Positions 9,332 through 44,173 of a stretch of DNA of 64,000 nucleotides are shown here, one piece after another (position 1 is the stretch's first letter; each line of letters opens with the position of its first letter). A model generated the notes under the pieces. The model was given only the letters and a program-made list of their open reading frames with translations. It did no database searches and was not told where the DNA came from. Location of the stretch: positions 22,836-86,835 of IMG/VR virus record IMGVR_UViG_3300017782_000007; one strand, written 5' to 3'. The position numbers and the translations under genes are program-made. Origin of the DNA: a virus.

Positions 9332-9383
9332 GTCGGTATCGCCCGACGACTCTCAATATACAACATTTTTTTAGCAATGTCAA
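9332..9383 (-). promoter_or_regulatory. Promoter TTGACA-N17-TATATT followed by GCGATA-loop hairpin
   Basis: Minus strand reads TTGACA ttgctaaaaaaatgttg TATATT gagagtc GTCGG-GCGATA-CCGAC. Confidence 0.65.
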
Positions 9384-9646
9384 ATATTCTTAGTCAAACG
9401 GACATGGAGTATAATTAATCTTGTTATAGTTTTAGCTAAATAAAATAGCAAATGAAGAATAAAGATAATACGGCTAGTAGTATTCCCAGGCCAGATAAAA
9501 GTACTAAACAGCCTTTCTTAATTAACGAATAGTCCATATTAGTATTATTTTGCAGTCGAGTAATATCTGGTATTTGTAGTAAAAAGACTTTTACGAGACT
9601 TCATTTTAATGAAATTAAAATTAATATTCTTCGTTTAGAAGAATCC

Positions 9647-9859
9647 TCACTGTACTTCTTTCTCTATTGGAGAGATACTGCACACAAGGCTATCTATAAT
9701 TTTTTCATCTTCTTCGTAATGAGTGGAAGTAATTCTATAAGTCTTTCCTGTACTAAATTTTATCTCACATACATTTTCTCTTGGATATGTAATATCTTCT
9801 ATATGTATATCCTTTCCTACAACATAGGGCTTTATTTTATCGGGGTTACAATTTTTCAT
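9647..9859 (-). CDS. Hypothetical protein
   Basis: 70 aa ORF on the coding strand. Confidence 0.5.
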   Translation of the reverse strand: MKNCNPDKIKPYVVGKDIHIEDITYPRENVCEIKFSTGKTYRITSTHYEEDEKIIDSLVCSISPIEKEVQ

Positions 9860-9953
9860 TTCTCAGTATTTAATAAAAAGACTTGTGAACAAATCTTCTT
9901 TCCTATCACAATATTAGCTACAATCACTTTCTTAATTTCCTTCTTCTTATACC

Positions 9954-10274
9954 TCATAATATAAACCATCTATTTTTAATCTTATAAAAATCTACTGCCT
10001 GATTAGTCATATGAAAAGGTTCTACTACAGAAGAATCCATATCTATAACTCTATCTGCTTTAATCATAGGAAACCTAGCTCTCTTCTTATCCGATCTGTA
10101 CCAAGACTTATACTTAATAGTTTCTGTCCAAGGCTTTAATACCTTTACAGATATCTTATCATATTTAGGGTCTAGCGTATATTCCTTAGCCCCCTTAAGT
10201 AATACTACTAAATGATCTTTACTAGCTTCGTGCTCTATAACTTTTCCCATTGGTTGTTGTCTTTTATATGTCAT
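9954..10274 (-). CDS. Hypothetical protein
   Basis: Likely start MTYKRQQ at 10274 after an A-rich leader. Confidence 0.6.
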   Translation of the reverse strand: MTYKRQQPMGKVIEHEASKDHLVVLLKGAKEYTLDPKYDKISVKVLKPWTETIKYKSWYRSDKKRARFPMIKADRVIDMDSSVVEPFHMTNQAVDFYKIKNRWFIL

Positions 10275-10409
10275 TATTTTAAGTTTAATCTTTTTCTTCT
10301 TATTTCTAGCGAAGTAACCCACGTTACTGGCTCGGTATTACATAATTGTGAGAAGCACTCTTCTCTATCTGCTCTATAATGTATATCCATCTCTATGTTT
10401 CTCATGGTA

Positions 10410-10460
10410 CAAAGATACAACATTAAATACCGTTTGTCAAGTTTTTAGCCAATTATTTTC
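10410..10460 (-). promoter_or_regulatory. Leftward promoter TTGACA-N17-TATCTTTG
   Basis: Matches Bacteroidota -7 consensus TAnnTTTG with TTG 20 nt upstream; upstream AAAATAATTGGCTAAAAAC is shared with the promoter at 44102. Confidence 0.7.
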
Positions 10461-10464
10461 AAAA

Positions 10465-10526
10465 AAAATTTTTTTATATATAGGGTGATTGAAAATTTTT
10501 TTATATATAGGGTGATTGAAAATTTT
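10465..10526. repeat. 27-bp tandem direct repeat, about 2.3 copies
   Basis: AAAATTTTTTTATATATAGGGTGATTG at 10465 and 10492, partial third copy at 10519. Confidence 0.9.
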
Positions 10527-10805
10527 ATGTATATTTGAGGGGGTATACCTCCCAAAGCTGTACCCCTTAATTGATTTTGGGTCGAAAGGTGGGGGTTGCT
10601 TCTCTTGTGAGTTGTGATTTTTGGCGATGGTAATTGTGTTTGGAATGTTAGTGCTTCTGTACTAAATACTATTTCGACAGCGGAACATCATCATCAACAT
10701 CAACACATACTTTCCATGTACAATAAGTTATGACACTAGTGCTTGAGTAGGAATACAACATGCGTCATGTACGTTAGCTGTTTTCTTAACTTAAATATTA
10801 ATATC

Positions 10806-11423
10806 ATGACTGAAGTACAAAAATTAAAGGAACAAGCTCAAGAAGTATTCGCACAAACATTTGCTGAATTCGCTAAACCTGAACACGCTAATAACACTAA
10901 AACGTATAGCGCAACAGGGAACAATAGTGGATTTGCGTCAGATGCGTGGGCTGAATACTGTATTGCTGGACAAGAGAAACCATTGCATACAACTATTGAT
11001 TTAGCTGCTTTACCATATAAGATGAAAGCACGAATCATTGGTTATAACTTTGCTACTACTACGGACTCTTCTGGAAAAGACGTGCCAGTATTGGACGCGC
11101 AAGGTAAGAAAATGCCTAAGGACTTCTTGAACTTAGTTGATTTGCCTATTACTGTTACTAAGAAGAACGGTAGTAGAGAATCTAAAGTTATTCAAGTTGC
11201 TCAGATTGTTGCAGCAATAGTATACAGAGATGTTATTACTAGTGTGATTCAAGAGGATTCAGAAATGTGTCTTAAACTTACAATCAACGAGAAAAGTCCA
11301 GCATATTGTAGAACTAGGTTGTATGAAGGCAAGGAATTCATGAAGGTCATTGGGGATACTGGTGAAAAGTATGAGGATGTTACGAGAGAGATTGATGAAA
11401 AGATTGCTGCAATAAATGCTTAA
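10806..11423 (+). CDS. Hypothetical protein (first rightward gene)
   Basis: Likely start MTEVQKLK at 10806; codon usage typical of strong genes. Confidence 0.75.
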   Translation: MTEVQKLKEQAQEVFAQTFAEFAKPEHANNTKTYSATGNNSGFASDAWAEYCIAGQEKPLHTTIDLAALPYKMKARIIGYNFATTTDSSGKDVPVLDAQGKKMPKDFLNLVDLPITVTKKNGSRESKVIQVAQIVAAIVYRDVITSVIQEDSEMCLKLTINEKSPAYCRTRLYEGKEFMKVIGDTGEKYEDVTREIDEKIAAINA

Positions 11424-11493
11424 TGCTAATAGCTTCCCCCACCTTAGACTCCATTTTAGTACTATCTCCCGCTTCTCATGCTTACGGTAGTGC

Positions 11494-11553
11494 TACTCAC
11501 AAGATATCCTTCTCACAAGATAGAATACTCACAAGATAGAATACTCACAAGAT
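11494..11553 (+). repeat. Four 16-nt-period repeats with core CTCACAAGAT
   Basis: Core at 11496, 11512, 11528 and 11544; consensus TACTCACAAGATAGAA. Confidence 0.9.
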
Positions 11554-11614
11554 TTAGTAACCGGGTTCGATACTTACATCTGAGCCGTAAACTCACATAG
11601 CACTAGAGTATAAA

Positions 11615-12280
11615 GTGCCTAATATCATGATGAATTCGTTCAATCCTACACAAGCATTAAAGATCCATGTAAATGATGACAGAATTGAGACTAAACAAGT
11701 CTTAGTATGTTCAAACGTTACATTAGAAAACAGTACAAAGTCTCATCGTGCTGTTATTACTGAAGCGATTAAGCAAAGATGGCAACATTGTGCTATCGAG
11801 ATGGGGAAATCGTTACACTACGCGTATATAGACGAGAAATACAATGATAACAACGACATGTTCCAAATTACGATGGAAGCATGTTCGGAGGGAATTACTG
11901 AGAATGTATTCAACCCTTACTCATTTGCATTAATGACTAAGTTTATTGAGAAACTTGATTTGTTAGCTACTTTCGAGGGACATGAGAGTATTGATGTTGA
12001 CTTTAGAACAATTGTTCAATTAGTTAAAGCATTGAAAGATTATTCTCCTCAATGTGGATTTGCTAGTGATAAGGAAAAAGCTACTAAGGTTGCTGATAAG
12101 TTATTTAATCAGTTATTGGAAATAGTAGTTGCTTATACTTATAGTCCTCCACAACCTACTCTTGAACCATTATCTCCTCTTGAGAAGAAGAAGAAAGCTA
12201 GATTAGCTAATATTTCAAAGCCAGAGAAGGAAGATAAAGCCTTTGAATTTGCTGCTGATGATGATCTATTAAAAGATTAA
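11615..12280 (+). CDS. Hypothetical protein
   Basis: 221 aa ORF (start may be ATG 11627). Confidence 0.7.
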   Translation: MPNIMMNSFNPTQALKIHVNDDRIETKQVLVCSNVTLENSTKSHRAVITEAIKQRWQHCAIEMGKSLHYAYIDEKYNDNNDMFQITMEACSEGITENVFNPYSFALMTKFIEKLDLLATFEGHESIDVDFRTIVQLVKALKDYSPQCGFASDKEKATKVADKLFNQLLEIVVAYTYSPPQPTLEPLSPLEKKKKARLANISKPEKEDKAFEFAADDDLLKD

Positions 12281-12323
12281 TCACATGGTTATAAAGATTG
12301 TTACATATAGATGAATCCCTTTG

Positions 12324-12357
12324 GAGAGTTGCTATTAATTTAGTAGCTCTCTTTTTT
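12324..12357 (+). terminator. Intrinsic terminator
   Basis: GAGAGTTGCTA/TAGTAGCTCTC stem then T6. Confidence 0.7.
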
Positions 12358-12380
12358 GTTTACCTTAAAATAACATTGTT

Positions 12381-12725
12381 ATGACAAATGAAGTAATAAA
12401 CAACTTATTGGAAATAGCTGAATTGAATCGTGAGACTCAAACTCTTGTACTATTAATTAAACATTCTCCTCAAGAGAATCTTAAAGAATATCGCAAGCAG
12501 CTCTTAATACGTAAGGAAGAAAAGTTATCTAAGTATGATACAAGAGAGATAGAAGCTGTAGATAATAAGATATATCTTACTATTACTCAAGCACATTCTT
12601 TAGCATACCACCTCAATAGACCATTTGAGGAGAATGAGGAATATGATGATGGCTACTGTAGTAGTGATCGTGAAGTATCTCCTCCTTGGGATGATAATGA
12701 AGCTGCTTATTGGAATATGGATTAG
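12381..12725 (+). CDS. Hypothetical protein with acidic C-terminus
   Basis: ORF with ACCTTAAAA-type start context. Confidence 0.65.
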   Translation: MTNEVINNLLEIAELNRETQTLVLLIKHSPQENLKEYRKQLLIRKEEKLSKYDTREIEAVDNKIYLTITQAHSLAYHLNRPFEENEEYDDGYCSSDREVSPPWDDNEAAYWNMD

Positions 12726-12775
12726 AATTATGAGGGTGAAACTCCCTCTATTTTTAACCTTAAAACAGTAATATT

Positions 12776-13084
12776 ATGATCAGTAAACATGTAATCGAAG
12801 AATTAGCAAAATTAAACAAAGAATTATCTAATACCCACAAAATAGATGCTTTCATCCTTGATGTGATTAATCAAATTAGGACTAACCAGTTAATTTTAAA
12901 CAAACGTGGATACTACGTTTGTAACATAGGTGGCCTTTTTACATCTTTATTCCACTTAAATGGACCTTTACCACTTAAAGCGTATGAAGAACTTAGCGAA
13001 GCATTTAAGGAAGCAGGATTTACTGTTAAACCTTTTGTAGGCACCGAACATTTGATTGATAAATTCTTTTTTAAACCTTCTTAA
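12776..13084 (+). CDS. Hypothetical protein
   Basis: ORF with ACCTTAAAA-type start context. Confidence 0.65.
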   Translation: MISKHVIEELAKLNKELSNTHKIDAFILDVINQIRTNQLILNKRGYYVCNIGGLFTSLFHLNGPLPLKAYEELSEAFKEAGFTVKPFVGTEHLIDKFFFKPS

Positions 13085-13323
13085 ACCCGTATGTTATGGC
13101 ATTAGCTACAGCTATTATCATTATTGGAATACTACTCGCATTAGCTGAGACTTCCAGATAAACCATAACATAACCATGATTACCTAAGCACAGACTCCTA
13201 ACAGAACGGAGTCCAGAGCACCTTAGTCGGATATGGTGCCAGAATATGACCGACTATTTCCCTTAACAGGGTGAGCATCCTATGTCACGGGCAATGCAAT
13301 ATAACCTAATAGACACATTTTAA

Positions 13324-13490
13324 GCCTGATCGTGATACCATCCTAAGTAACTGGAGTATCACCCTTATCTTGAGACGTTCAAAGAATTACTACTCAAGAG
13401 AATGGAAGCTGAAAGAGAGTCAGCAGCATAGTAACGGATTAATAGCGTGCTATGTCGAAATTAAAGGTGCGAATCCTTCATCAGGCACTA
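13324..13490 (+). ncRNA. Expanded tRNA-like RNA (acceptor + T-arm enclosing four hairpins)
   Basis: GCCTGAT/ATCAGGC 7-bp stem; AAAGG-TGCGAAT-CCTTC T-like arm; ends A-CTA. Confidence 0.5.
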
Positions 13491-13508
13491 TTCGTGAGAT
13501 AATTTGTT

Positions 13509-13538
13509 AAGGGGAGCATTAGTGCTCCCTTATTTTTT
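13509..13538 (+). terminator. Intrinsic terminator
   Basis: GGGGAGCA-ttag-TGCTCCCT then T-tract. Confidence 0.7.
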
Positions 13539-13556
13539 CAACCTAAAAAGATTAAT

Positions 13557-13715
13557 ATGAATATCATAAAACAATCTAAACTCTGGTGGAATAAACTTCC
13601 ATTAGAGGATAAACTCTATCAAATCTCAGGAACTACTATGACAGTAGCTAGTATAACTGAGACGCAAGTTAAGCAATTGTATTTGCTTGCGAGAGGACCA
13701 CAAGAAAGAAATTAA
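13557..13715 (+). CDS. Small hypothetical protein (52 aa)
   Basis: MNIIKQSKLWWNKLPLEDK...; below track cutoff; typical start context. Confidence 0.55.
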   Translation: MNIIKQSKLWWNKLPLEDKLYQISGTTMTVASITETQVKQLYLLARGPQERN

Positions 13716-13732
13716 TTTACTCAACCTTAAAA

Positions 13733-14179
13733 TTGACAAACGTGAGAGATTTAAAAAGATTAGCAATCATAGTATTCCCACTCTTATCTGTATTATTATA
13801 CTTGCTAGGCCAGAATGAAGCTGATAAGTATGATGAAGCATCCTATCAATTGATTGAGACTAAGAAAGAAGTTAGAGAACTTCAGAAGTCATTAGATATC
13901 AATGAGGAGATGCTTACTGAAGAAATAGAGAAAACAAGAGCTCATCAAATAGCTTTTGAACACATCAGACAACCAGAAGACCAACTATACTACATGACAT
14001 TCTTTAATACTTCGGACGAAGTAGAGATGTTTGTGGAAGGTACATTCTATAATCCTGCTGAAAAAGGATTAAAAACAATTGATATATCCCCAGATATGGA
14101 GGAAGAAATGAAAGTATACTCTAAGTTCTTCAAGGAATTAGAATACGAAATAACATATTCTCATACTCTTGGGGAATAA
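13733..14179 (+). CDS. Membrane-anchored coiled-coil protein
   Basis: N-terminal TM helix; TTG start. Confidence 0.65.
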   Translation: MTNVRDLKRLAIIVFPLLSVLLYLLGQNEADKYDEASYQLIETKKEVRELQKSLDINEEMLTEEIEKTRAHQIAFEHIRQPEDQLYYMTFFNTSDEVEMFVEGTFYNPAEKGLKTIDISPDMEEEMKVYSKFFKELEYEITYSHTLGE

Positions 14180-14352
14180 AATATGATGTTCGTTTAATTG
14201 GGGGAGCAGAACTAGTCTCCCCTTTTTACCTGTTCCCCCAACAGGTTCGACATGTACATCTGAATTGATTACAATTGGGTTTTATTGATATATGGTAGAA
14301 GGGGGAGTATTTATACTCTCCCTACTTTAAGTTAAGAAAAATGCGTCAGGAA

Positions 14353-14403
14353 TTCCCACAGGTTAAATAACTGTAACCTCATTTGCGTGAGGTGTGGGAA
14401 CTA
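14353..14403 (+). ncRNA. Three-way-junction motif, copy A
   Basis: TTCCCACA GGTT-AAAT-AACT GTAA CCTCA-TTTGCG-TGAGG TGTGGGAA CTA. Confidence 0.65.
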
Positions 14404-14421
14404 ATCAAAATACCTATTACA

Positions 14422-14661
14422 ATGAAAAAAAGAAATATTTTATCGGTACTCTTATATTTATGGTTATCTTTCTCTTGCTTGTACTTCTTTGCAGTACTTA
14501 AAAGAGCACATGATGACATTGATAAGAATTACCACATTAAACTTGAAGAACAAAGAGTTTTAAAAGACTCTATTAAATTATTAAAAAAAGAAATTTACGA
14601 TGAAACTAGAAGGAATAATTATCGGAATTCTCCTCCTATCCTTGATGGGAGCGGGGATTAA
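14422..14661 (+). CDS. Small TM and coiled-coil protein
   Basis: Likely start MKKRNIL; TM helix. Confidence 0.6.
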   Translation: MKKRNILSVLLYLWLSFSCLYFFAVLKRAHDDIDKNYHIKLEEQRVLKDSIKLLKKEIYDETRRNNYRNSPPILDGSGD

Positions 14662-15064
14662 TAGTATATATACTCAGTATGAAAACCATATCCCTGAGTA
14701 TACTTACACGTCTCCTGCTATTGAAGCAGATACAGTTGACCGACTAGCGGAATTGCGTAAGAGATTTGAACCTCTACATAATAATCGCTATGACTTCAAC
14801 ATGCGAATGTGGCTAAGGGATAACCCTAATACTACATATGAATTAGCAGAAGCTCATAGAGTGATGCTATGGAAGAAATACTCAGGCTATTCCAAGCCAA
14901 TGAAAGGATATTCTGGTACATATAATCAGGAAACTAAGAGATATGAACCAACAATACTTAGCGAACTTAGAAAAGAGCCTTCATTCATTGAAGAATATGC
15001 TCAACGTACAGCACCTATAGAAACCCCTGAAACTATTATTGAAATTAAAATCGTACACAGATGA
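14600..15064 (+). CDS. Membrane-anchored hypothetical protein
   Basis: N-terminal hydrophobic helix. Confidence 0.65.
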   Translation: MKLEGIIIGILLLSLMGAGINSIYTQYENHIPEYTYTSPAIEADTVDRLAELRKRFEPLHNNRYDFNMRMWLRDNPNTTYELAEAHRVMLWKKYSGYSKPMKGYSGTYNQETKRYEPTILSELRKEPSFIEEYAQRTAPIETPETIIEIKIVHR

Positions 15065-15228
15065 GAATTATTATAATTCTATGTATCTGGGTATACTTTG
15101 TGATAAGCTTCGGCTGTCCAAAGTCAACAACTCTCCCCTCAGCAGAGTTACAAGGAGCAATAGACATATCTTTGTCACTAATCCTAGTCGGATTATGTTT
15201 GCACGGGTATGCTAAAAAGAATATGTGA
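15061..15228 (+). CDS. Small two-TM protein (55 aa)
   Basis: MRIIIILCIWVYFVISFGC...LSLILVGLCLHGYAKKNM; ATGA overlap with upstream stop. Confidence 0.55.
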   Translation: MRIIIILCIWVYFVISFGCPKSTTLPSAELQGAIDISLSLILVGLCLHGYAKKNM

Positions 15229-15310
15229 TAGGTTGAACGATGGGAGGTACTCAAGTAATTGGGTGCTTCCCACTTTAACAAAGAACTTTTCATGCGTTTG
15301 TTTTAATCTG

Positions 15311-15342
15311 GTGAGACAGCTTAGCGGCTGTCTTACTTTTTT
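15311..15342 (+). terminator. Intrinsic terminator
   Basis: GTGAGACAGC-TTAGCG-GCTGTCTTAC then T6. Confidence 0.7.
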
Positions 15343-15377
15343 CCCTCGTCATTAGCGTGACACAAAATTGTTTTAAG

Positions 15378-16136
15378 ATGTTAGAATACTTAAAAAAAAT
15401 ACGACCTTTCCATGTAATCAACGTAGTGTTAGATTACTTGGTGGAATCTAAATACATTCAAATATATTCTGCAATGTGTTTATTGGTTGGAATGTATGTA
15501 ACCACTATGGTTGCATTTAATACAATCACTTATATAGCTGGCTTGGAAGTACTTCCTAAATTAGCCACTACTACTGAAACGACAACGATTATTGATTCTC
15601 CGAAGAAATTATCTTCTATGGCCAAGCCAGAAAGAGAATACGACAGCAACAAAGGAACAAAGAATGCTACACCTTATTACTTGAAAGAGATGTCAGAAGT
15701 GGCAATCAAGGAACAAGATAAATTTGGTATACCTGCTAGTATTACGTTAGCTCAATATCACCTTGAATCAGGTGTAAGGGCAGATAAACCACCTTCAGAC
15801 CTAGCAGTTGAAGATAATAACTGGTTTGGAATGAAATATACTGATAACTTCTATGCATTTCTTAAGAAAAGAGGAATAGTGATAAGTAGAGGAGAGAAAA
15901 GATGCAACAGAAGAGGTAAAGATTGTGCTAATTATGCTGTATTTGCTAGTAGATGGGAATGTTTTAGAGCTAAGTCTCTACTACTTACCAACTCAAACTA
16001 CAGTAGAATTAAAGGAGATACGTACATTGATTGGGCTAAGGGATTAAAGGAGTATGGCTATGCTACTGACCCCAATTATGATAAGAAGTTAATAAAAATA
16101 GTGGAAAAGTTTGGCTTAGCCAAATACGATTCATAA
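15378..16136 (+). CDS. GH73/FlgJ-type peptidoglycan glucosaminidase with TM anchor
   Basis: GIPASITLAQYHLESG, NNWFGMK, GYATDPNYDKKL motifs; TM helix near N-terminus. Confidence 0.88.
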   Translation: MLEYLKKIRPFHVINVVLDYLVESKYIQIYSAMCLLVGMYVTTMVAFNTITYIAGLEVLPKLATTTETTTIIDSPKKLSSMAKPEREYDSNKGTKNATPYYLKEMSEVAIKEQDKFGIPASITLAQYHLESGVRADKPPSDLAVEDNNWFGMKYTDNFYAFLKKRGIVISRGEKRCNRRGKDCANYAVFASRWECFRAKSLLLTNSNYSRIKGDTYIDWAKGLKEYGYATDPNYDKKLIKIVEKFGLAKYDS

Positions 16137-16165
16137 AGAAACGTTTGTTCATAGTAGAGAGGGTA

Positions 16166-16197
16166 TCCCTGGCCAGTAACATGGTCGGGGACTTTTT
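16166..16197 (+). terminator. Intrinsic terminator
   Basis: TCCCTGGCCA/TGGTCGGGGA stem then T5. Confidence 0.6.
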
Positions 16198-16214
16198 ACA
16201 CAATCACATAAATA

Positions 16215-16409: not shown

Positions 16410-16586
16410 CTGACCAGCTCTGTTCTTTAGGGTACAGAGCAAATCTACAGTCCACGGGCTGTAGAGTTAGGATCGTGCAACGCGTACGGCCAAGGCTACA
16501 ATGACTGAGATTTGATAATAACATCCGAGTACCAGGGAGAGTCTAGTTTAGGCTCTCCTTATTTAAAAACTTAAAAATAGTTATTT

Positions 16587-17100: not shown

Positions 17101-17105
17101 CCCTA

Positions 17106-19144: not shown

Positions 19145-19209
19145 ACAAGACGTAACATGGGCTACACCAGTATTATTTTATTTTTTAATTTTAAAACTTT
19201 TAAAGACAA

Positions 19210-20772: not shown

Positions 20773-20945
20773 GGTATGCACCGGTGCCGCTCTTCACGGA
20801 GGTTTCTCAGGTCAATCTGGACGGTTCCTGGGTAATCATCTTTTCGTCAGAAGAGACATCCTCCTCTCTACTACCAACGCCTTGTCTGGCTTAGGAATAA
20901 TGGTAGAGAGGACAATTTGATTTTTTAATTAAACTTCATATATTT

Positions 20946-23022: not shown

Positions 23023-23623
23023 GAAAATTTATCTGCCTGAACTAGACATTCAAGCACAAGATAACAAATTACATTGGAGAGAAATTGCCTCAAAAGGATC
23101 AGGATTCCCATCATCTATGTGGAAAACTGATAGCACCTTTGGTACAACTCCTGAAATTACATTTGGATTTGAAATGGGAGCTGACTACCCATTAATGTAT
23201 TTTCGTTCACCTTTAGTCAGAGATATTGCTTTTGAGAAACTAAGACATGCTAAGGAGTATAGCAAAGTGCGATTGGGGAGAGATGACTTTTTTAAGTCAG
23301 TCACTTCTCGTGATAAAAATGCTATGGTATCCTCAATGCAGAACTTAGACCTCAAAGATATCTTTCAAGAGCACATCAATAAACGTTTTGGAAGTCTTTC
23401 CGGGTTGAATAAAGAAGTTCATATGGACAAACCATTGACCAATGAGCTATTTAACTCAATTATCAAGGACAAGTTTGATGCTAGTCAAGGTATAAACAAA
23501 CGAGGACTAGTAGTCCAACTTTGTAATGCTTTGGAAAAGCCTAAATTCCCTGGCTCGGAGAAGATTCCTAGTGAAATGTTTTGGTGGTACTTTATTTCTA
23601 ACCTTAAAACAATTAAAGCATGA
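23015..23623 (+). CDS. Hypothetical protein
   Basis: 202 aa ORF overlapping both neighbours. Confidence 0.7.
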   Translation: MNKKIYLPELDIQAQDNKLHWREIASKGSGFPSSMWKTDSTFGTTPEITFGFEMGADYPLMYFRSPLVRDIAFEKLRHAKEYSKVRLGRDDFFKSVTSRDKNAMVSSMQNLDLKDIFQEHINKRFGSLSGLNKEVHMDKPLTNELFNSIIKDKFDASQGINKRGLVVQLCNALEKPKFPGSEKIPSEMFWWYFISNLKTIKA

Positions 23624-25018: not shown

Positions 25019-25027
25019 TTGCTGGTA

Positions 25028-25080
25028 GACTCAGTCTAATGGATGGCGAAAGCCTGTAGGTTCGATTCCTACCTGAGTCA
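25028..25080 (+). ncRNA. Anticodon-less mini-tRNA
   Basis: GACTCAG TCTAATGGAT GGC-GAAA-GCC T GTAGG-TTCGATT-CCTAC CTGAGTC A. Confidence 0.7.
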
Positions 25081-25099
25081 CTCACTAAATCTTTAAATT

Positions 25100-25327
25100 A
25101 TGTTCGCAATAGCAACAAAAAAGAAGGTTTATATCACTCCAGAACACTATGAATTGTACGAAAAAGAATTCCAAGCCGGAACCTATGTACTTTATCATAA
25201 AACTGGTAAATATAGAACTTTCGTAGGGATTGTAGGGATCCCTCACACAGCTTGTCCCACTAAGACGGTGTTAGTATCGCCTTTAAGAGAAACATATTTC
25301 GTCACTTTAAATCATAAATATCAATGA
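25100..25327 (+). CDS. Hypothetical protein
   Basis: 75 aa ORF coupled to the MoxR gene. Confidence 0.65.
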   Translation: MFAIATKKKVYITPEHYELYEKEFQAGTYVLYHKTGKYRTFVGIVGIPHTACPTKTVLVSPLRETYFVTLNHKYQ

Positions 25328-28666: not shown

Positions 28667-28723
28667 CATAGTCGGGCACTTTTCGGAGTGACCCGCTATA
28701 TTTTTTAACTTTAAAATTTTATT

Positions 28724-31485: not shown

Positions 31486-31920
31486 AAGGGACCTCAGGTC
31501 CTTTCATACCGCCTTAGTTATTGACTGTAAAAGTGTGATAACTAAGGGTGTGTCCCGCTTAAGAGCGAAAAAATAGTTATCGTATAACGGTAACGGTCAG
31601 TCCAAATAGTTATTAGTTTCTGTACACAATACGCTAATACTATTATTAGACTCTTGGATTCCTTAATCCCTGAGACAATTCTGAAGGTGACCACAAAGAT
31701 TGTGTAAGTGAATGATCCTCACTAAAAATATAGATCGTATTAAAATGAAAGATTCATTGGCTAGGCCAGTAAGTTATCTTAGTGTTACATTATACTTATG
31801 GAAGCAATTATCATACCCATAACGGGCCATTAAGTATTTTCCCTACATAACGAATACCACTGCTCTCGGTGCAGGATTGGTTAGGTACATAACAAGCTAC
31901 TAATTACTGAATCTGATTTT
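31486..31920 (+). ncRNA. Long structured RNA or leader upstream of polA, unassigned
   Basis: ORF-free about 430 nt; helices AAGGGACC/GGTCCTTT, CCTTAGTTATT/GATAACTAAGG, GTTATCGT/ACGGTAAC and others. Confidence 0.4.
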
Positions 31921-31934
31921 TTAACTATTAAAAT

Positions 31935-36090: not shown

Positions 36091-36119
36091 TTGACTTTCA
36101 TTAATTAAATCATTATATT
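36091..36119 (+). promoter_or_regulatory. Promoter TTGACT-N17-TATATT
   Basis: Same spacing as the promoters at 9383 and 44121. Confidence 0.5.
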
Positions 36120-36413: not shown

Positions 36414-36423
36414 TCAAGAACCA

Positions 36424-36814: not shown

Positions 36815-36830
36815 GTTTAAAACAAGCAAT

Positions 36831-37991: not shown

Positions 37992-37992
37992 T

Positions 37993-38562
37993 ATGGAGTT
38001 AACAAAAGAAAAATTACAACAACTTAACAAATTAGGTCTTAGATTAGAACATTATTTTGTGCTCTGGTCTAAGGCAGAATCATTAGCCCTATTACCCTAT
38101 TACAAGGTAGATAATAGTATTTACACAGATTTGATGAACAAAGGGTACCTTAGTTTATCTAAAAACATTACAAAAGATGGTATTAAACTTATTGCCCCAG
38201 TGGAGGAAACCCAAGAGTGGCGAGAACATTTTGAAAAATGGTGGAATTTATACCCATCTACCGACAAGATTGATCACCACCCAAGATCGAGAAGTCTTAG
38301 AGGTAACAAAGCTGCCGCGGAAAGATATTATAAAAGAATTTACGAAAGGAGTGATGACGGTATGCATAGAAAAATATATGCCGGGTTACAAAACCACATT
38401 CAATCCTTTACTTCACGTACGAAGCTCACTGGGGATAACGCTTTCAAGTACTTCCCATCTGCCTCAAAATGGCTCAACAACGAGCTATGGGATGTCTGGT
38501 ATGAGTCCGACTCGGGTAACTCAGATAGACCCCCTAAGAGCGGGAGAATTAAAATTTCATGA
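37993..38562 (+). CDS. Putative replication initiator / helicase loader
   Basis: FEKWWNLYP...YFPSASKWLN pattern of phage replisome-organizer C-domains; directly upstream of the helicase. Confidence 0.6.
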   Translation: MELTKEKLQQLNKLGLRLEHYFVLWSKAESLALLPYYKVDNSIYTDLMNKGYLSLSKNITKDGIKLIAPVEETQEWREHFEKWWNLYPSTDKIDHHPRSRSLRGNKAAAERYYKRIYERSDDGMHRKIYAGLQNHIQSFTSRTKLTGDNAFKYFPSASKWLNNELWDVWYESDSGNSDRPPKSGRIKIS

Positions 38563-38582
38563 GAATGTAGCGTCACAAGGAA

Positions 38583-39563
38583 ATGTCTGAAGTTAGGAGT
38601 TTAAGTTGGAAGTCTATTAATAAAGCTACTAAAGAAGCATTGGAGGAAATAAAAGGAAGAAAAGAAGGGACAATTAAGTCACTTCAGACTTCAATGCCTA
38701 AATTAGATAAAGCTTTATTTGATGGATTCCCCTGGGGTTCCATAATTTTAGCTGGTGGACTAAGTGGATCTGGAAAATCTATGTTCGTTGAACAATTAAA
38801 AAGAGATTTCGTAAACTATAATCCTAACGAGAAATTTGAGATATTGTCATTTGAATTTGAGATGTTGGGTAAGATGCAGGTACTAAGGAATCTATCAGGG
38901 AAACTAGGTACATCGGTGAGACACTTGCTGTCAGCTGATTCTAATACCTTATCTGATGGAGAATTAGATATGGCAAAGGGTAAACTTAATGAAATAAGTA
39001 GATACCCAATATCTTATGTGGATAATGCAGGAACTTCAGAAGAAATAGAAAAAACTATCTCCTCATTTATAGAAGTAAAAAAGTTAAAAGAAGATAAGAA
39101 AGGATTGATTATTACTATGGATCACGTTCTCTTGGCTAAGGAGAACCTAAACGAATCTGAAAGAATCATGTTGAGGAATATTTCCAATGCAATGATTCGA
39201 GTAAAAAAGAAATATTCAGATGAGTTTCCAGTAATGATTATTCTAGTAACACAGTTAAATAGGAATATAGAACAGAAAGAGAGGATATTGAATGAGAAGC
39301 TCCATATGCCTAATAAGACTGATATTCAGGGATCATCTAGCTTATTTCAAAGTTGTGATTTCTGCTTAGTGTTACATAACCCCTCTACGCTGAAAGGAAT
39401 AGGGGATACTTATTCTCATGAAAAACTACCTTTATACACTCCTGATGAGCAGAATGCCATGATTTATATCCATGTGTTGAAAGCTAGAACAGGAGAACAG
39501 TCTATACTGGCTATGAAGGAAAACTTTGCTAATTCTAGAATTGAAGAGTATAACGATTTATAA
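38583..39563 (+). CDS. dnaB: DnaB-like (SF4) replicative helicase
   Basis: GGLSGSGKS, SFEFEM, TMDHV, VTQLNR, DIQGSSSLFQSCD, LKARTGE. Confidence 0.9.
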   Translation: MSEVRSLSWKSINKATKEALEEIKGRKEGTIKSLQTSMPKLDKALFDGFPWGSIILAGGLSGSGKSMFVEQLKRDFVNYNPNEKFEILSFEFEMLGKMQVLRNLSGKLGTSVRHLLSADSNTLSDGELDMAKGKLNEISRYPISYVDNAGTSEEIEKTISSFIEVKKLKEDKKGLIITMDHVLLAKENLNESERIMLRNISNAMIRVKKKYSDEFPVMIILVTQLNRNIEQKERILNEKLHMPNKTDIQGSSSLFQSCDFCLVLHNPSTLKGIGDTYSHEKLPLYTPDEQNAMIYIHVLKARTGEQSILAMKENFANSRIEEYNDL

Positions 39564-39574
39564 ATTTAAATTAC

Positions 39575-39997
39575 ATGGAAATTACGAAACCAATCCCGTC
39601 CTTCAGGGACAGGAGCGAGTCAATTAAAAACTTAGCAGGGGCATTGATAAAATTTCAATCCCGGATGCCTGGAATCGCTAAAGATTCCACTAATCCTTTT
39701 TTTAAATCAAAGTACGTATCTCTTGGATCACTCCAAGAAGCAATAAAACCTGTCTTAGTAGAGGCAGGACTCTGTTACGTACAATTACTAGAGGGAACCA
39801 GAACGGTAACTACAATGTTAATTCATGCTGAATCAGGTGAATTTATACAGAGTAGTGTCTCTATGAAACCAGAGAAGGATACTCCTCAGGGAGTAGGTAG
39901 CGCTATCACTTATCAAAAGAGATATGCTCTAGCAGCCTTACTCGGAATTAACACCGATTATGATGATGACGGTAACTCCGCTTCATCTTCACGATAA
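39575..39997 (+). CDS. erf: ERF-family ssDNA annealing protein
   Basis: KDSTNPFFKSKY, HAESGEFI, QGVGSAITYQKRYAL, DDDGN. Confidence 0.93.
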   Translation: MEITKPIPSFRDRSESIKNLAGALIKFQSRMPGIAKDSTNPFFKSKYVSLGSLQEAIKPVLVEAGLCYVQLLEGTRTVTTMLIHAESGEFIQSSVSMKPEKDTPQGVGSAITYQKRYALAALLGINTDYDDDGNSASSSR

Positions 39998-40039
39998 AAT
40001 TACTTATATTACACATAAATTAGTTAAATTACTTTAGAC

Positions 40040-40645
40040 ATGTCAAATAAATCATTTACGGGACAATCACTTCTTGATAGAAGAAAACCAGCGTCCCAAA
40101 GACAACTTCCCATCGATATTAATACCAACATTATGTACACTTCTATGGATGTTGGCGAGTTATATAGCAGAGTAGTTTTCTCCAACGAGGAGGGACAGAA
40201 TGGGTTTAAGACTGTCTGGCATCCAAAGCCAGATGGAGAGCGTGCTTTTGGCTCAGACACCCCAGAACAAGCATACCGAAAGGTCTATGACAATAGAATC
40301 AATTGGTTTGTTGATGTATTAATTGCTATGGGCTTGGAGTCGCAAGTTGCACAAATGGACGTCTCCGGAATTAACGAATGGGATATGGATTCATACTTGA
40401 GATTCTCTAAAGATGTGAAAGCATTATTAGATGAAGCAGGTACCGAACCTAGAGTTAATCTGAAAGTTAGATACGATAATAAAGGAGAATGGCCTTTTAT
40501 TCCTGATTACAAGTTTATTGAGAAACATGTTCCAGGAAATCCACCTACTTTAGCGTATACTGATAATGAGATTGAGAAGTATCTCAAACCTGCATCAGTA
40601 GATGTAGAGGGCGACACAGTTGTCAATGAGCAAGAATTATATTAA
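40040..40645 (+). CDS. Putative ssDNA-binding protein
   Basis: Position between ERF and primase; acidic C-terminal tail ending in an aromatic residue. Confidence 0.45.
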   Translation: MSNKSFTGQSLLDRRKPASQRQLPIDINTNIMYTSMDVGELYSRVVFSNEEGQNGFKTVWHPKPDGERAFGSDTPEQAYRKVYDNRINWFVDVLIAMGLESQVAQMDVSGINEWDMDSYLRFSKDVKALLDEAGTEPRVNLKVRYDNKGEWPFIPDYKFIEKHVPGNPPTLAYTDNEIEKYLKPASVDVEGDTVVNEQELY

Positions 40646-40653
40646 ATAGTGTT

Positions 40654-40677
40654 CGAGGGGGTAGAAATACTCCCTCG
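40654..40677 (+). terminator. Stable hairpin (possible terminator or processing site)
   Basis: CGAGGGGGTA-GAAA-TACTCCCTCG; weak T-tract. Confidence 0.45.
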
Positions 40678-40694
40678 TACTAAACTTTACAGAC

Positions 40695-41699
40695 ATGACA
40701 GGGAATGACTTAATTAAAAAGTCGAAAGAGAGAAATAAAATTCATGTTACACGAGACCATATCTTAACTGAGTTAACGCAGTTTCAGATTATGGAATATT
40801 ATACAGGTCAACCTGTTATGATTAACTTCCCATTTAAATCACCTTTTCGAGAAGATACGAAAGCCGGATGTAAATTTATTATTCAGGCTGGTAAACTCTA
40901 CTTTAGAGATTATTCTCAAGAAATTATGTGGGATTGTTTTAGTGTAGTTATGAATAAATTTAATATAAGCTTCCCCGAAGCATTAGAACGAATACATTCA
41001 GATATGGGAGTTGGTAAGTTTAAACCAAATACTTACAAACCTATTGAAGAATACCCAGAAGAAAAATTAAAATACCAGATTAAGGCCGAAGGATGGGACG
41101 AAGAGTCCTTGGAATACTGGAAACAATTCGGCATTACTGAACCAACCTTAAAAAGATTTAAGGTGTTCAATACAAAAAGAGTTTATAAAAATGGAAAATT
41201 TTCAAGTAGAAGCACAAGAGCTAACCCTATCTATACGTATGTCCTCAAATCGGGTAATTGTAAAAATTACCGACCACTCGCTAAAGCTGGCAACAAGTGG
41301 TGGGGGAATACAAGTAAGTCAGACATCTTCGGGTATGATTTATTGCCTGACGAGGGGGAGGAGCTAATTATTACATCATCTCTAAAGGATGCTATGACAG
41401 CTTACGAGCTAGGCCATCACAATGTTATAGCGCCGCAATCGGAGATATCAAATTTTGATATAGATTTGATAGACGATTTAGAAAATAGGTTTAAAAGAAT
41501 AACAGTTATATATGATAATGACGCTACTGGAATAGCTAAGATGGAAGAGTGCTGCATGAAGTACGGGTGGAGGTACAAAATACCTCCTTTAAAAGATATC
41601 TCGGATACGTATAAGAGTTTAGGAAAGAAGGCAACACAGAATTTCTTAGGTGAAGATACGTATCAGATAGAGTGGGAACTATCTAATATCCCATTTTGA
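40695..41699 (+). CDS. dnaG: DnaG-type primase (Toprim)
   Basis: SPFRED N-domain, ITSSLKDAM, APQSE, YDNDATG, KDISD. Confidence 0.88.
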   Translation: MTGNDLIKKSKERNKIHVTRDHILTELTQFQIMEYYTGQPVMINFPFKSPFREDTKAGCKFIIQAGKLYFRDYSQEIMWDCFSVVMNKFNISFPEALERIHSDMGVGKFKPNTYKPIEEYPEEKLKYQIKAEGWDEESLEYWKQFGITEPTLKRFKVFNTKRVYKNGKFSSRSTRANPIYTYVLKSGNCKNYRPLAKAGNKWWGNTSKSDIFGYDLLPDEGEELIITSSLKDAMTAYELGHHNVIAPQSEISNFDIDLIDDLENRFKRITVIYDNDATGIAKMEECCMKYGWRYKIPPLKDISDTYKSLGKKATQNFLGEDTYQIEWELSNIPF

Positions 41700-41722
41700 T
41701 TTCTTAACCAAATCATTTATAT

Positions 41723-43210
41723 ATGAGTACTAAGTCGATCAAGGATTTTATTCTAGCGTATCCAGCGCGTGCTCCTAACGAAGGGGCAAAACACTTTGGT
41801 ATAGATATATCAGAGTATCAAAAACTTTACAGAGAAGTTATTAAAAAGTCTTACAAGCAATTTATGGCACAGCTTCCAAAGACTTCTGTAGTTCTAGTTA
41901 CAGGTGCTGTTAAAAATGGCGTAGAATCTTTTGAAAAGTATGTGATTAATTGGAAGACAAAAACTATTGTAACCTTTGTGTTAGCTGACACATTTACAAT
42001 GTCTTTCGATATGCATAATGCTATTCAGAGAGCCTACGTTCATCAAGGAGAAGGAATGACTGCAGCAGAAGTTGCAATGCATTTTGACTTCCCTAGTGAT
42101 AAATATATCCATGCTTATGCTAGGATACATGGATTCACCAAAGCCAGTCCTGTAACAACGGATTTACAGATCTTAATGGGAGCTTCTGTTGAGGAAGAGT
42201 CTAACAAGTCACTTCAAGCTTTCAAGCGAAAAGTATGGCAACAATCAGAGAAGAAAAAGTGGCAGGAGATTGAGAAAGGTTATAGGAAATGGGCAGACTT
42301 TAAGTCTGGTGTTCTTAAGCCTTTTGAAAACTATGTGGCTGATAAGTTACCATACTATAAACCTCCAATCTTAGGGAAGATAAAACTTCCTAATTATAAG
42401 TATAAATTTGGATGGGTGTTTGGGATGTGTGATACTCACTATATGCGTCTATGTTTCAGTCATACTGGGGCTGTTGTATACAATCGTAAGATTGCTAAAG
42501 ACAGAATTAGACGTCATGTAGTTCAGAGTATTAAAGAAGGTACTAGATTTGCTAACTTTGATAAGATAATGATTTGTGTAGGTAATGATAATATTCACGT
42601 AGATAATTCTGCGCATACTACTACTGCTGGTACTACTCAGGTAGGACAAACAGAAGGTAATTATGCATTAGATGTAGATACATATGTGGATATAACATTA
42701 GATTATATTGAGTCATTTGCTCAATTGGGGGTACCAGTTGAGGTTATCAATGTATGGGGAAATCATGATGAACAAACTTCTAAACTATTAGGAGTATTTT
42801 TAAGTAAATTCTATGCCAAGAGAAAAAATGTAACTGTTCGGAATGAATTTCATTCTCGAATATATACTTCTTATGGTAATACTGGTATGATGTTTAGTCA
42901 TTCTACTGGTTGGTCTCAAGCTAAACTCAGAAACAATCTTCATAAGATGGTTATGAGTGAGGCTAAGGGACGAGGATTATCTTTGGATAAGCTTCATCGA
43001 TGGGCTGCTTTCACATTCCATTTACATGCAGAGAATTTTGCAGATCTAAATGGGTTTATGAAGCACTATACAGCTCCTTCATTAAGTGCAAATGAGTGGT
43101 TTGATGATTCATGGCATACTGATAAAGGTTTTATCGGTAGAGAGCCGGAAACAGCTAATTACTTATTCCACAAGACAGAAGGCCGTAAGTATATCTTTTA
43201 TGTAAAGTAA
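41723..43210 (+). CDS. Calcineurin-like metallophosphoesterase with N-terminal extension
   Basis: CDTHY, GNDNIH, GNHD, FSH, FHLH motifs. Confidence 0.8.
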   Translation: MSTKSIKDFILAYPARAPNEGAKHFGIDISEYQKLYREVIKKSYKQFMAQLPKTSVVLVTGAVKNGVESFEKYVINWKTKTIVTFVLADTFTMSFDMHNAIQRAYVHQGEGMTAAEVAMHFDFPSDKYIHAYARIHGFTKASPVTTDLQILMGASVEEESNKSLQAFKRKVWQQSEKKKWQEIEKGYRKWADFKSGVLKPFENYVADKLPYYKPPILGKIKLPNYKYKFGWVFGMCDTHYMRLCFSHTGAVVYNRKIAKDRIRRHVVQSIKEGTRFANFDKIMICVGNDNIHVDNSAHTTTAGTTQVGQTEGNYALDVDTYVDITLDYIESFAQLGVPVEVINVWGNHDEQTSKLLGVFLSKFYAKRKNVTVRNEFHSRIYTSYGNTGMMFSHSTGWSQAKLRNNLHKMVMSEAKGRGLSLDKLHRWAAFTFHLHAENFADLNGFMKHYTAPSLSANEWFDDSWHTDKGFIGREPETANYLFHKTEGRKYIFYVK

Positions 43211-43215
43211 TTTTG

Positions 43216-43242
43216 TGAGGGGGCTTCGGTCCTCTCATTTTT
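43216..43242 (+). terminator. Intrinsic terminator
   Basis: TGAGGGGGC-TTCG-GTCCTCTCA then T5. Confidence 0.75.
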
Positions 43243-43401
43243 AAAATAAATTAGAAAAATTAGAAATGGAAGAACAATTGAGAAAAGTAAATAATAATTT
43301 GTCCATATTATGTGTCGTTTTGTGTGTTGATGTAATACTTCAATGTTTACTCACCGCAGAATCATTCATGCGTATGGTTTAACCTTATAAATAAATTTTA
43401 A

Positions 43402-44031
43402 ATGGAACTCAAGAGAAAAGATGATTTTAAAGTGTTTCTTGAAGTAGGAACAGAAATTGAAAAAGCACTTCATGACTTCGGACTTGTCCGTTATGGAGAC
43501 CTTCAAGCATCTTCTAGTAGGAAGATTGCAGCAATTATCGTAGAACGTAATGGAGCATTGTTAACAAAGAGTTTTAAAAATACTCTCGCTTCTGGAGATT
43601 TTCATTTCCAGGTAGAGTTAGCTTGCCAAGGCCAGATGAAAACATTAGAGAGTTGGGTTGAAGAAAGAGAGTATACTCCTGACCTAGGAATAGGAAGAGG
43701 GTTCTCTGGAGTAGATCTAACCGGCCCAGATATTGCTTGTGACGCAATGCAAGCCGTTCTAAGCGATGATTTCGATACTGGAATAGGAAATGTCCAGGAC
43801 AACAGTAAAACTCTTGAGATCTCCTGGAAAGACGCCTGGAACAATATTAAGCCAGAGATGAAGATTTACATCTTGATATCTCTGGAAGCAGGTGAGAACA
43901 AGAATGCCATGGAATTGGTAGGAAATGAATATCCAGATATGGCAAGAGAATATCGTGAAACATTATTGTTGATCGTTAGACATAAATTCATACCATTTTT
44001 GGAAAGAATAAATGCCTACATTACGGCATAA
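43402..44031 (+). CDS. Hypothetical protein
   Basis: 209 aa ORF. Confidence 0.7.
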   Translation: MELKRKDDFKVFLEVGTEIEKALHDFGLVRYGDLQASSSRKIAAIIVERNGALLTKSFKNTLASGDFHFQVELACQGQMKTLESWVEEREYTPDLGIGRGFSGVDLTGPDIACDAMQAVLSDDFDTGIGNVQDNSKTLEISWKDAWNNIKPEMKIYILISLEAGENKNAMELVGNEYPDMAREYRETLLLIVRHKFIPFLERINAYITA

Positions 44032-44101
44032 GAGTTAGGTTACTAGCTGTTTTTTGATGGGGGTTTGGAGCAATCTAAACCCCTACTTTAAAAATAATTT
44101 A

Positions 44102-44173
44102 AAAATAATTGCTAAAAAACTTGACAAATGATGTTTTAGACTGTATATTTAGAGTCTCTACGGCGATACGTAG
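44102..44173 (+). promoter_or_regulatory. Promoter TTGACA-N17-TATATT followed by GCGATA-loop hairpin
   Basis: AAAATAATTGCTAAAAAAC TTGACA N17 TATATT tagagtct CTACG-GCGATA-CGTAG. Confidence 0.7.

Follow-up and report, generated by a model that had tools for sequence, protein, structure and literature searches.

An AGAGTC block and GCGATA-loop hairpin at the predicted transcript starts of two divergent operons in a crAss-like phage: a candidate RNA operator

Results

The DNA derives from an uncultured, marine, crAss-like phage with a genome of 86.8 kb and a G+C content of 36%; all coordinates refer to the analysed stretch of 64,000 nucleotides, termed the window. The phage is crAss-like and syntenic with Cellulophaga phage phi14:2; it is not N4-like. 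The genome layout is that of phi14:2, with the first of the two sites described here, site 1, near the head of the equivalent leftward block. The site 1 operon points leftward; small genes come first, and GroEL, the large terminase (TerL) and the portal follow. The site 2 operon runs rightward from a uracil-DNA glycosylase (UDG; closest homologues at 49% and 42%) to a resolvase-like gene and a PDDEXK exonuclease.

An earlier note on this DNA had read two strings at the heads of these operons, each consisting of TTGACA-N17-TATATT, AGAGTC and a hairpin with a GCGATA loop, and both were confirmed letter for letter, with their coordinates and strands. As read directly at both sites, the hexaloop is identical and the 5-bp stems differ yet pair fully. 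The features of the two sites are:

9355–9383, minus strand: site 1 host-type promoter, with TTGACA (9383–9378), a 17-nt spacer and TATATT (9360–9355), of the same class as the phi14:2 middle promoters
9348–9353, minus strand: site 1 AGAGTC block, separated by a G from the -10 hexamer and spanning the predicted transcription start
9347–9332, minus strand: site 1 hairpin core, with GTCGG (9347–9343), GCGATA (9342–9337) and CCGAC (9336–9332)
9327–9352, minus strand: site 1 extended hairpin, in which AGUC/GACU lengthens the stem to 9 bp with one bulged U
9217–9353, minus strand: site 1 leader, with two adjacent predicted hairpins and an 18-codon upstream ORF (uORF)
44060–44083, plus strand: terminator-like hairpin GGGGTTT...AAACCCC, read from the sequence, marking the end of the preceding unit directly ahead of the site 2 promoter
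44111–44149, plus strand: site 2 host-type promoter, with the A-tract GCTAAAAAAC, TTGACA (44121–44126), a 17-nt spacer and TATATT (44144–44149)
44151–44156, plus strand: site 2 AGAGTC block, separated by a T from the -10 hexamer
44158–44173, plus strand: site 2 hairpin, following a T, with CTACG (44158–44162), GCGATA (44163–44168) and CGTAG (44169–44173)
44151–44272, plus strand: 122-nt leader of site 2, predicted to fold into four hairpins and reaching up to the UDG ATG (44273)

The single model for gene expression in crAss-like phages is phi14:2, in which the virion polymerase transcribes the early genes and the host polymerase the rest; its middle promoters, composed of an A-tract, a -35-like and a -10-like block, are read by host RNAP and used by E. 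coli sigma-70 RNAP as well (10.1101/2020.03.07.982082). Compared with the mapped phi14:2 promoters P070, P075 and P108, both promoters described here are of this crAss-like host-RNAP middle/late type, having an A-rich block and a -35-like TTGAC/TTGCA about 17–19 bp from a -10-like TAnnTT(TG), with the A-tract of site 1 located inside the spacer and not upstream. The likeness to P070, P075, P108 and P110 extends to the A-tract, TTGAC(A/T), 17 bp and TATnTT, P070 reading AAAAAAAC-TTGACT-N17-TATATTTG and site 2 GCTAAAAAAC-TTGACA-N17-TATATTTA. In contrast to our sites, the start codon of these four phi14:2 promoters follows 4–22 nt after the -10-like block without a long structured leader, and none of them carries AGAGTC or a leader hairpin. 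The phi14:2 UDG gene likewise differs in its setting, as it overlaps its upstream gene and belongs to the early, virion-polymerase class. Two sister promoters of the class were found in the phage itself:

10412–10440, minus strand: sister promoter (P10440) without the AGAGTC-hairpin, GCTAAAAAC-TTGACA-N17-TATCTTTG, leaderless with an ATG 6 nt later
36091–36119, plus strand: sister promoter without the AGAGTC-hairpin, TTGACT-N17-TATATT, with a 15-nt leader

As these sister promoters lack it, the AGAGTC-hairpin is an addition to the promoter class, placed where two long, structured leaders are predicted to start. Of the four promoters in this class, those at sites 1 and 2 alone have long leaders, and both fold far better than shuffled sequences (z of -2.7 and -3.3, respectively). 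In both predicted folds a second hairpin abuts the first, and only the first is common to the two. The extended hairpin of site 1 has an energy of -13.8 kcal/mol (z -4.0), and that of site 2 reaches -5.8 kcal/mol as RNA, alone no better than shuffles. The G+C content of the site 1 leader up to the uORF is 56%, and the uORF (9269–9213; 18 codons) ends in a TGA overlapping the ATG of the first gene (9216). The distance from the hairpin to the uORF ATG is 81 nt at site 1, and at site 2 the hairpin lies 100 nt upstream of the nearest start codon, which argues against direct translational repression.

The location of the element at the transcript 5' end is a prediction from promoter geometry, for site 1 from that of the leaderless promoters P070 of phi14:2 and P10440 of this genome. 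A contig from an RNA library (metatranscriptome) has its first base at 44158, where the site 2 stem starts, and hints weakly at the transcription start; being an end of assembled contigs at a depth of 2.5, it cannot show a true 5' end. The other contig ends, at 44089–44124, are loose, short AT-rich matches. Sequencing runs with a small share (X6 to X11) gave no evidence of habitat or relatives.

We assessed the common element for chance similarity. In the whole 86.8-kb genome, TTGACA-N17-TATATT promoters occur at sites 1 and 2 only, TTGACA-N16–18-TATAWT is found in the window at these two sites against 0.24 expected and nowhere else in the genome, and the register from TATATT to AGAGTC is 1 nt at both sites. 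The genome contains one pair of hairpins (5-bp stem, 6-nt loop) sharing the loop and the upstream 6-mer, compared with a mean of 0.01 in 200 Markov-simulated genomes, a figure that leaves out the condition of an equal register behind the only two such promoters. A chance origin of the paired sites is excluded. The promoter spacers agree at 3 of 17 positions and are thus unrelated, while the -35, the -10, AGAGTC and G-GCGATA-C are identical, and therefore the pair is not a recent duplication. That there is no separate function, the likeness being chance or the relic of a duplicated promoter, is scarcely credible: this would suit an element with two copies that relatives lack, but the simulation, in which no promoter was required, yields 0.01 such pairs per genome, and four blocks are identical and the stem paired between spacers of random identity. 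Both partners differ between the sites in stem pairs 1, 3 and 4 (G-C to C-G, C-G to A-T and G-C to C-G), and the stems contain no G-U pairs that could prove structure at the RNA level. As for a complement of the loop, the only other GGCGATAC, at 25274–25281, is within chance expectation.

No third copy of the AGAGTC-hairpin is present in the genome. Stem-GCGATA-stem near TTGACA promoters of relatives, a check proposed in the earlier note, was found in none of 160 related loci searched by regular expression plus pairing; neither the 80 viral loci of UDG relatives nor the 80 of TerL relatives (36–60% identity) held a related hairpin or AGAGTC promoter, and the nearest relatives (TerL 48–60% identical) carry no copy of the element. 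Of the three nearest relatives, two (L205, L206) have at the orthologous spot a leaderless promoter of the TAnnTTT(G/A) type and no hairpin, and a third (L208) has no recognisable promoter and no hairpin. Five TerL-related viral contigs (whole records, four of them of 80–96 kb) showed no excess of TTGAC-type promoters. DNA similarity searches with both regions against 50,697 phage records returned no match, nor did Rfam yield anything relevant with gathering or permissive thresholds; exact-pattern scans of IMG/VR and JGI metagenomes gave unrelated matches only, none with the hairpin joined to the promoter. A loose pattern gave 111 matches in IMG/VR, 11 of which had stems of at least 4 bp, compared with 3 for a shifted control; once repeats and homologues were merged, about 7 remained versus 3, which we counted as noise. 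Conservation of the element is therefore that of two paralogous copies within one uncultured genome.

The earlier note had also considered a hairpin promoter element for the virion RNAP, as in N4; such a hairpin would be extruded from DNA and used by the injected enzyme. N4 vRNAP promoters have a 5–7-bp stem and a 3-nt loop, are centred at -11 and lack sigma-type hexamers (PMC4496689). The present element resembles them in being a small hairpin whose loop and closing pair are conserved and whose stem bases vary; the genome also contains a giant virion-polymerase-like ORF, and site 2 lies within a module that is early in phi14:2. The giant virion protein has weak similarity, around a DYDID motif, to phi14:2 gp66, which transcribes denatured DNA from promoters that are unknown; the giant ORF gave no match to PDB sequences. 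However, gp66 represents a polymerase class different from the T7-like N4 enzyme, for which the hairpins act as template-strand DNA upstream of early genes, whereas the leftward block of site 1 is read by host polymerase in phi14:2. The loop here has 6 nt instead of 3, a perfect host-type promoter stands upstream in fixed register, and the early module has its own signal, AAC[CT]TTAAAA, repeated behind terminator hairpins at at least 10 genes, and no GCGATA hairpin. The site 2 hairpin, moreover, is too weak to be easily extruded from duplex DNA. An N4-style promoter is thus highly improbable, and what stands of the earlier interpretation is a structure-plus-loop element, probably selected, at two predicted transcript starts, with a nut/put-like or protein-binding RNA site as the leading candidate.

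Several other candidates were likewise examined. No U-run follows the hairpins, as would mark an intrinsic terminator or attenuator, the subsequent letters being UGACUUAGCG and UCGUAAUACA. A CRISPR-repeat mimic and a dimeric operator were ruled out, as the two stems differ, and for a methylation switch at GANTC/GAGTC, such sites were neither avoided nor enriched.

Discussion

Between the two copies, loop and 5' flank do not vary, and of the stem only the pairing is preserved; we therefore take the element to act as RNA, as a transcribed operator with the loop as its recognition site, and to be read in a sequence-specific manner. We consider it probable that it is a selected leader element, specifically recognised at the RNA level. 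Its activity at the level of DNA, with AGAGTC and GGCGATAC contacting a DNA-binding regulator, the host sigma or core, or forming a sigma-dependent promoter-proximal pause, is by comparison unlikely. Such an element could switch both promoters on or off together, with a regulator candidate in the winged-helix-like product of 8508–8975, a gene that comes second in the site 1 operon and is a lead only. The spacing of exactly 1 nt from TATATT to AGAGTC, seen at either site, would fit, as would (T/G)AGAGT, which forms a second -10-like hexamer abutting the first, and the departure of both -10 regions from the TAnnTTTG form of P10440. Nevertheless, a duplex operator would not explain why the stem still pairs after three double changes; the conserved centre lacks symmetry, and the half-sites that a dimeric winged-helix protein would need are not conserved.

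Hairpins at the 5' terminus can stabilise transcripts, for instance in the ompA 5' UTR, and act through structure alone. A hairpin 0–4 nt from the 5' end might similarly shield the two transcripts, taken to be highly expressed, from decay that starts at the 5' end, or mark the site of a specific RNase or end-binding protein controlling their lifetime. With the predicted start inside AGAGTC the stem would begin at about +1 to +5, at site 1 it takes in GUC and leaves almost no 5' overhang, and both leaders are long and strongly structured. An element dependent on the RNA end would also need the fixed register to the -10 hexamer, and the contig start at 44158 is compatible. The likeness to ompA-type stabilisers thus lies in a hairpin a few nucleotides from the 5' end of a highly expressed transcript, but generic stabilisers require a stable stem only, whereas here loop and flank are invariant, the site 2 stem is weak and the unpaired 5' tail of site 2 would measure 3–7 nt. 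We regard stabilisation as a doubtful reading that ranks close behind antitermination.

Our leading mechanism, processive antitermination or anti-pausing by analogy with lambda nut and HK022 put, is a tentative assignment. In its most novel form, to which we assign a probability of roughly 0.3, AGAGUC and the GCGAUA-loop hairpin would be an RNA operator of a novel processive antitermination or polymerase-modifying system of a Bacteroidota phage, a crAss-like functional counterpart of nut and put. The cassette would combine a strong crAss-like middle promoter for host RNAP (A-tract, TTGACA, 17 bp, TATATT) with an initially transcribed AGAGUC and 5-bp hairpin with an invariant G-GCGAUA-C top, placing both within about the first 25 nt of the transcript, as counted from the inferred start. 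The reader of this element would be either a trans-acting factor or the transcribing polymerase, and two operons facing outward would be marked for joint post-initiation control. The modified polymerase would then pass internal hairpin terminators, such as the one listed below, and both host-RNAP operons would be switched from promoter-proximal arrest or termination to full read-through.

46421–46450, plus strand: strong hairpin resembling an intrinsic terminator, internal to the site 2 unit and 27 nt from the next gene

It is the one convincing intergenic terminator of the site 2 unit; the site 1 unit has none, its terminator-like matches lying within coding sequence. The description of both operons as full of intrinsic terminators was in this respect overstated. 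Among the downstream genes, Pfam and PHROG recognised no N-like, Q-like or RNA-binding protein, an absence that leaves room for a novel binder.

The boxA consensus is CGCUCUUA-like (PMC3177189, PMC2800207) and is absent upstream of both hairpins, where the flank is AGAGUC. Like lambda nut, the sites combine a short single-stranded motif with a small hairpin behind it; its loop is conserved and its stem may covary between the left and right copies, and both kinds of site head a pair of outward operons with terminators inside. In contrast, the boxB loop is a 5-nt GNRA-like one compared with 6-nt GCGAUA here, and an N-like arginine-rich protein was not found in this phage. Furthermore, nut sites have no fixed promoter register; the 1-nt spacing, which a nut-type site does not need, hints at a role of AGAGTC in initiation or at the DNA level, or at the importance of a precise 5' end.

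The put RNAs of HK022 are two-stem elements of about 70 nt, two per genome, with putL just downstream of PL, whose two elaborate stems bind the beta' zinc-binding domain and which act on RNAP without protein factors (PMC9378689). Common to putL/putR and the present sites are two copies per genome behind two divergent promoters, a place directly behind the promoter in the case of putL, adjacent stem-loops in the transcript, here predicted, and a similarity between copies that is kept through structure. The sites differ from put in that the common part here is the first hairpin of 16–26 nt only, the second hairpins being unrelated; there is no sequence similarity, the host belongs to another phylum, and the function proposed here is inferred.

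In the crAss-like phage literature searched, no report of post-initiation control was found, and if our reading is true, the element would be the first point of access to such control in this highly abundant order. Seen twice in a single uncultured genome and missing from known relatives, it may also be a lineage-specific curiosity. The cassette would put the UDG and recombination genes of this lineage under host-polymerase control, and the element is short, precisely defined and suited to reporter tests.

Two promoters carry the same leader hairpin

Rereading both sites from the window confirmed the sequences described in the earlier note letter for letter. Each comprises a TTGACA-N17-TATATT promoter followed by AGAGTC and a 5-bp hairpin with a GCGATA loop, hereafter referred to as the cassette.

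Cassette elements
9383-9355, minus strand: site 1 promoter, TTGACA 9383-9378, N17, TATATT 9360-9355, then G
9353-9332, minus strand: site 1 AGAGTC 9353-9348 and hairpin, GTCGG, GCGATA 9342-9337, CCGAC to 9332
44121-44149, plus strand: site 2 promoter, TTGACA from 44121, N17, TATATT to 44149, then T
44151-44173, plus strand: site 2 AGAGTC 44151-44156, T, and hairpin, CTACG, GCGATA 44163-44168, CGTAG to 44173

The pattern TTGACA-N16-18-TATAWT occurs only at these two sites in the window (0.24 expected) as well as in the whole record of 86,835 bases, of which the window represents bases 22836-86835. Both sites are identical in the -35, the -10, AGAGTC and G-GCGATA-C; their 17-nt spacers agree at 3 positions, and stem pairs 1, 3 and 4 differ on both strands of the stem with pairing kept. 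Sites 1 and 2 form the only pair of 5-bp hairpins in the genome with a common 6-nt loop and a common upstream 6-mer; in 200 simulated genomes such pairs arose 0.01 times per genome. The two-site pattern is real and under selection.

We found no third copy in the genome when as many as two mismatches in the loop and one in AGAGTC were tolerated, and none was present in 80 large terminase (TerL) loci or 80 uracil-DNA glycosylase (UDG) loci of relatives; the nearest relatives available show a TerL identity of 56–60%. Exact-pattern scans of the IMG/VR and JGI metagenomes likewise yielded no copy, and no Rfam family matched. As these searches gave no further copy, the evidence for conservation consists of the two paralogous copies only.

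The promoter half is of a known host-type class

TerL matches and gene order identified the genome as crAss-like and not N4-like. Its TerL and that of Cellulophaga phage phi14:2 share 34% identity, with further matches in Flavobacterium and Bacteroides crAss-like phages, and the gene order agrees with phi14:2, comprising a leftward block (small genes, then GroEL, TerL and portal), a long rightward replication block and leftward giant virion proteins. Metagenomes of seawater and of viruses make up the DNA runs containing nearly the whole stretch.

The rightward replication module of phi14:2 is early and transcribed by the injected virion polymerase gp66, for which a common promoter motif was sought and none found; host RNAP transcribes the leftward genes of the middle and late classes, using a tripartite motif that includes a -35-like and a -10-like block, and E. 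coli sigma-70 holoenzyme reproduces the in vivo 5′ ends on these promoters (bioRxiv 10.1101/2020.03.07.982082). The phi14:2 promoter P070, read from the phi14:2 record, is AAAAAAAC-TTGACT-N17-TATATTTG, with the ATG 5 nt past the TATATTTG block, corresponding to 7 nt past the TATATT hexamer. This genome contains four promoters of the middle/late class.

Promoters of the phi14:2 middle/late class
10440, minus strand: GCTAAAAAC-TTGACA-N17-TATCTTTG, ATG 6 nt downstream, leaderless
36091, plus strand: TTGACT-N17-TATATT, 15-nt leader
Site 1, minus strand: TTGACA-N17-TATATT, long structured leader
Site 2, plus strand: GCTAAAAAAC-TTGACA..., long structured leader

The homologue of gene 8508-8975 (minus strand), second in the site 1 operon, is preceded by a leaderless TAnnTTT(G/A) promoter without hairpin in two of the three nearest relatives and by no recognisable promoter in the third. 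Because the same class occurs without the hairpin in phi14:2, in this genome and in relatives, the promoters of sites 1 and 2 are ordinary for this phage group and their promoter half is of a known kind, the AGAGTC-hairpin being an addition at these two promoters only.

Just 5′ of the leaderless promoter 10440, the divergent region harbors a perfect 27-nt tandem duplication (10465-10518), and the next intergenic gap contains three to four 16-nt TACTCACAAGATAGAA repeats (11494-11553). Both could be iteron-like or regulator sites.

Structured leaders

Judging from the geometry of the leaderless promoters, transcription would start within AGAGTC, 4–8 nt past TATATT, so that the hairpin would begin within about five nt of the predicted 5′ end. 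The extended site 1 hairpin has 9 bp (−13.8 kcal/mol) and the site 2 hairpin 5 bp (−5.8 kcal/mol). In each leader a second hairpin adjoins the first, these second hairpins being unrelated between the sites. The leaders, measuring 81 nt to a uORF and 134 nt to the first gene for site 1 and 122 nt for site 2, fold much more stably than shuffled sequences (z of −2.7 and −3.3, respectively). As far as the uORF, the site 1 leader has a G+C content of 56% (genome 36%) and is non-coding, since translation would need rare NCG codons. No U-run follows the first hairpin of either leader, so neither is a terminator.

One contig of a poly(A)-primed metatranscriptome run covers 44158-44348, starting at the first stem base of site 2; by chance, a contig end would fall 7 nt or less from the predicted start with a probability of about 0.04 (about 30 ends in 12 kb). 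As contigs cannot prove an RNA end, the start at 44158 is a weak hint of an RNA 5′ end.

The uORF (9213-9269, minus strand; 18 codons, MQMTNTYWCGRRPIKFKT) encodes a basic, arginine-containing peptide and overlaps the start codon of the first gene with its TGA stop (ATGA); the sequence suggests that the two are translationally coupled. The final hairpin in the site 2 leader (44212-44251, plus strand) shares about 80% identity over some 45 nt with 8412-8456 on the plus strand, within the minus-strand ORF 8261-8584. Leader 2 RNA would therefore be complementary to mRNA from the site 1 operon, a match that is statistically borderline. GGCGATAC occurs elsewhere in the genome only at 25274-25281 (plus strand GTATCGCC), in the intergenic region 25019-25323; on a plus transcript, GTATCGCC exactly complements all 8 nt of the hairpin loop and closing pair, an occurrence no more than chance predicts (about 2.6 per genome).

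Possible roles of the hairpin

Because pairing survives three double changes and the loop is invariant, the element would act as a folded single strand recognised sequence-specifically. We estimate a chance of about one in three that it is a loop-recognised RNA operator conferring antitermination or anti-pausing. The cassette layout is closest to lambda nut and HK022 put, with two copies behind two divergent promoters; in HK022, putL directly follows PL and put forms a two-stem RNA (PMC9378689). The cassettes point outward from the early module, site 1 heading a morphogenesis-side operon. Upstream of site 2 lies a terminator (44060-44083); downstream, site 2 heads the genes for UDG, a resolvase-like protein and a PDDEXK exonuclease, which are of the early, virion-polymerase class in phi14:2 (bioRxiv 10.1101/2020.03.07.982082). 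The interior of the site 2 unit contains a strong terminator-like hairpin (46421-46450), with the next gene 27 nt on. Counting against antitermination, no binder of the hairpin was identified among the genes examined, boxA is absent, terminators are few in the site 1 unit, and the 1-nt register to the -10 is strict.

So strict a register would better suit an element that relies on the exact 5′ end or is active at initiation. The former, a 5′-end stabiliser or processing site, is a tentative alternative, and a DNA-level initiation or operator element appears unlikely. As a lead only for the latter, the product of gene 8508-8975 looks winged-helix-like, its structural neighbours in the ESM Atlas resembling winged-helix regulators, and the gene is kept in the three nearest relatives (35–39% identity). 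A duplex operator for a dimer does not fit, as the half-sites differ. Direct translational control is disfavoured, the hairpins lying 81 nt (site 1, uORF ATG) and 100 nt (site 2) before the nearest start codon. The leader hairpin is, among promoter-proximal regulatory RNA elements, a new variant confined to one lineage, its mechanism being proposed only.

The early module carries a separate signal

The earlier note also considered a hairpin promoter for an N4-style virion polymerase. In N4, the promoter is a hairpin centred at −11 with a 3-nt loop, which a T7-like enzyme uses as template-strand DNA (PMC4496689), whereas the loops of sites 1 and 2 have 6 nt. Such a role is disfavoured and highly improbable: a host-type promoter lies upstream in register, site 1 heads the leftward block, which is host-polymerase-transcribed in phi14:2, the weakness of the site 2 stem speaks against hairpin extrusion from DNA, and the early module carries a different repeated signal of its own. 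This signal, distinct from the GCGATA hairpin, consists of a terminator-like hairpin, a T-run and AAC[CT]TTAAAA (or AATTAAAC) with an ATG about 10 nt on, and precedes at least 10 genes of the rightward module.

Early-module signal
12351-12384, plus strand
12746-12779, plus strand
13530-13563, plus strand
16550-16586, plus strand
19180-19209, plus strand
20915-20945, plus strand
23590-23623, plus strand
28690-28723, plus strand
31905-31934, plus strand
43375-43401, plus strand

It may be a virion-polymerase promoter or act as a signal in translation. The giant ORF 55353-63998 (minus strand, 2881 aa), beginning 2 nt from the contig end, is a candidate for a very divergent virion polymerase; it has a DYDID motif at residue 1834 that aligns weakly with the phi14:2 g066 catalytic region (E = 0.003), and no Pfam or PDB sequence match. 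The rightward block (10441-50605, plus strand) contains about 7.3 kb of intergenic sequence, holding tRNA-like fragments (e.g. 25020-25080) uncalled by ARAGORN.
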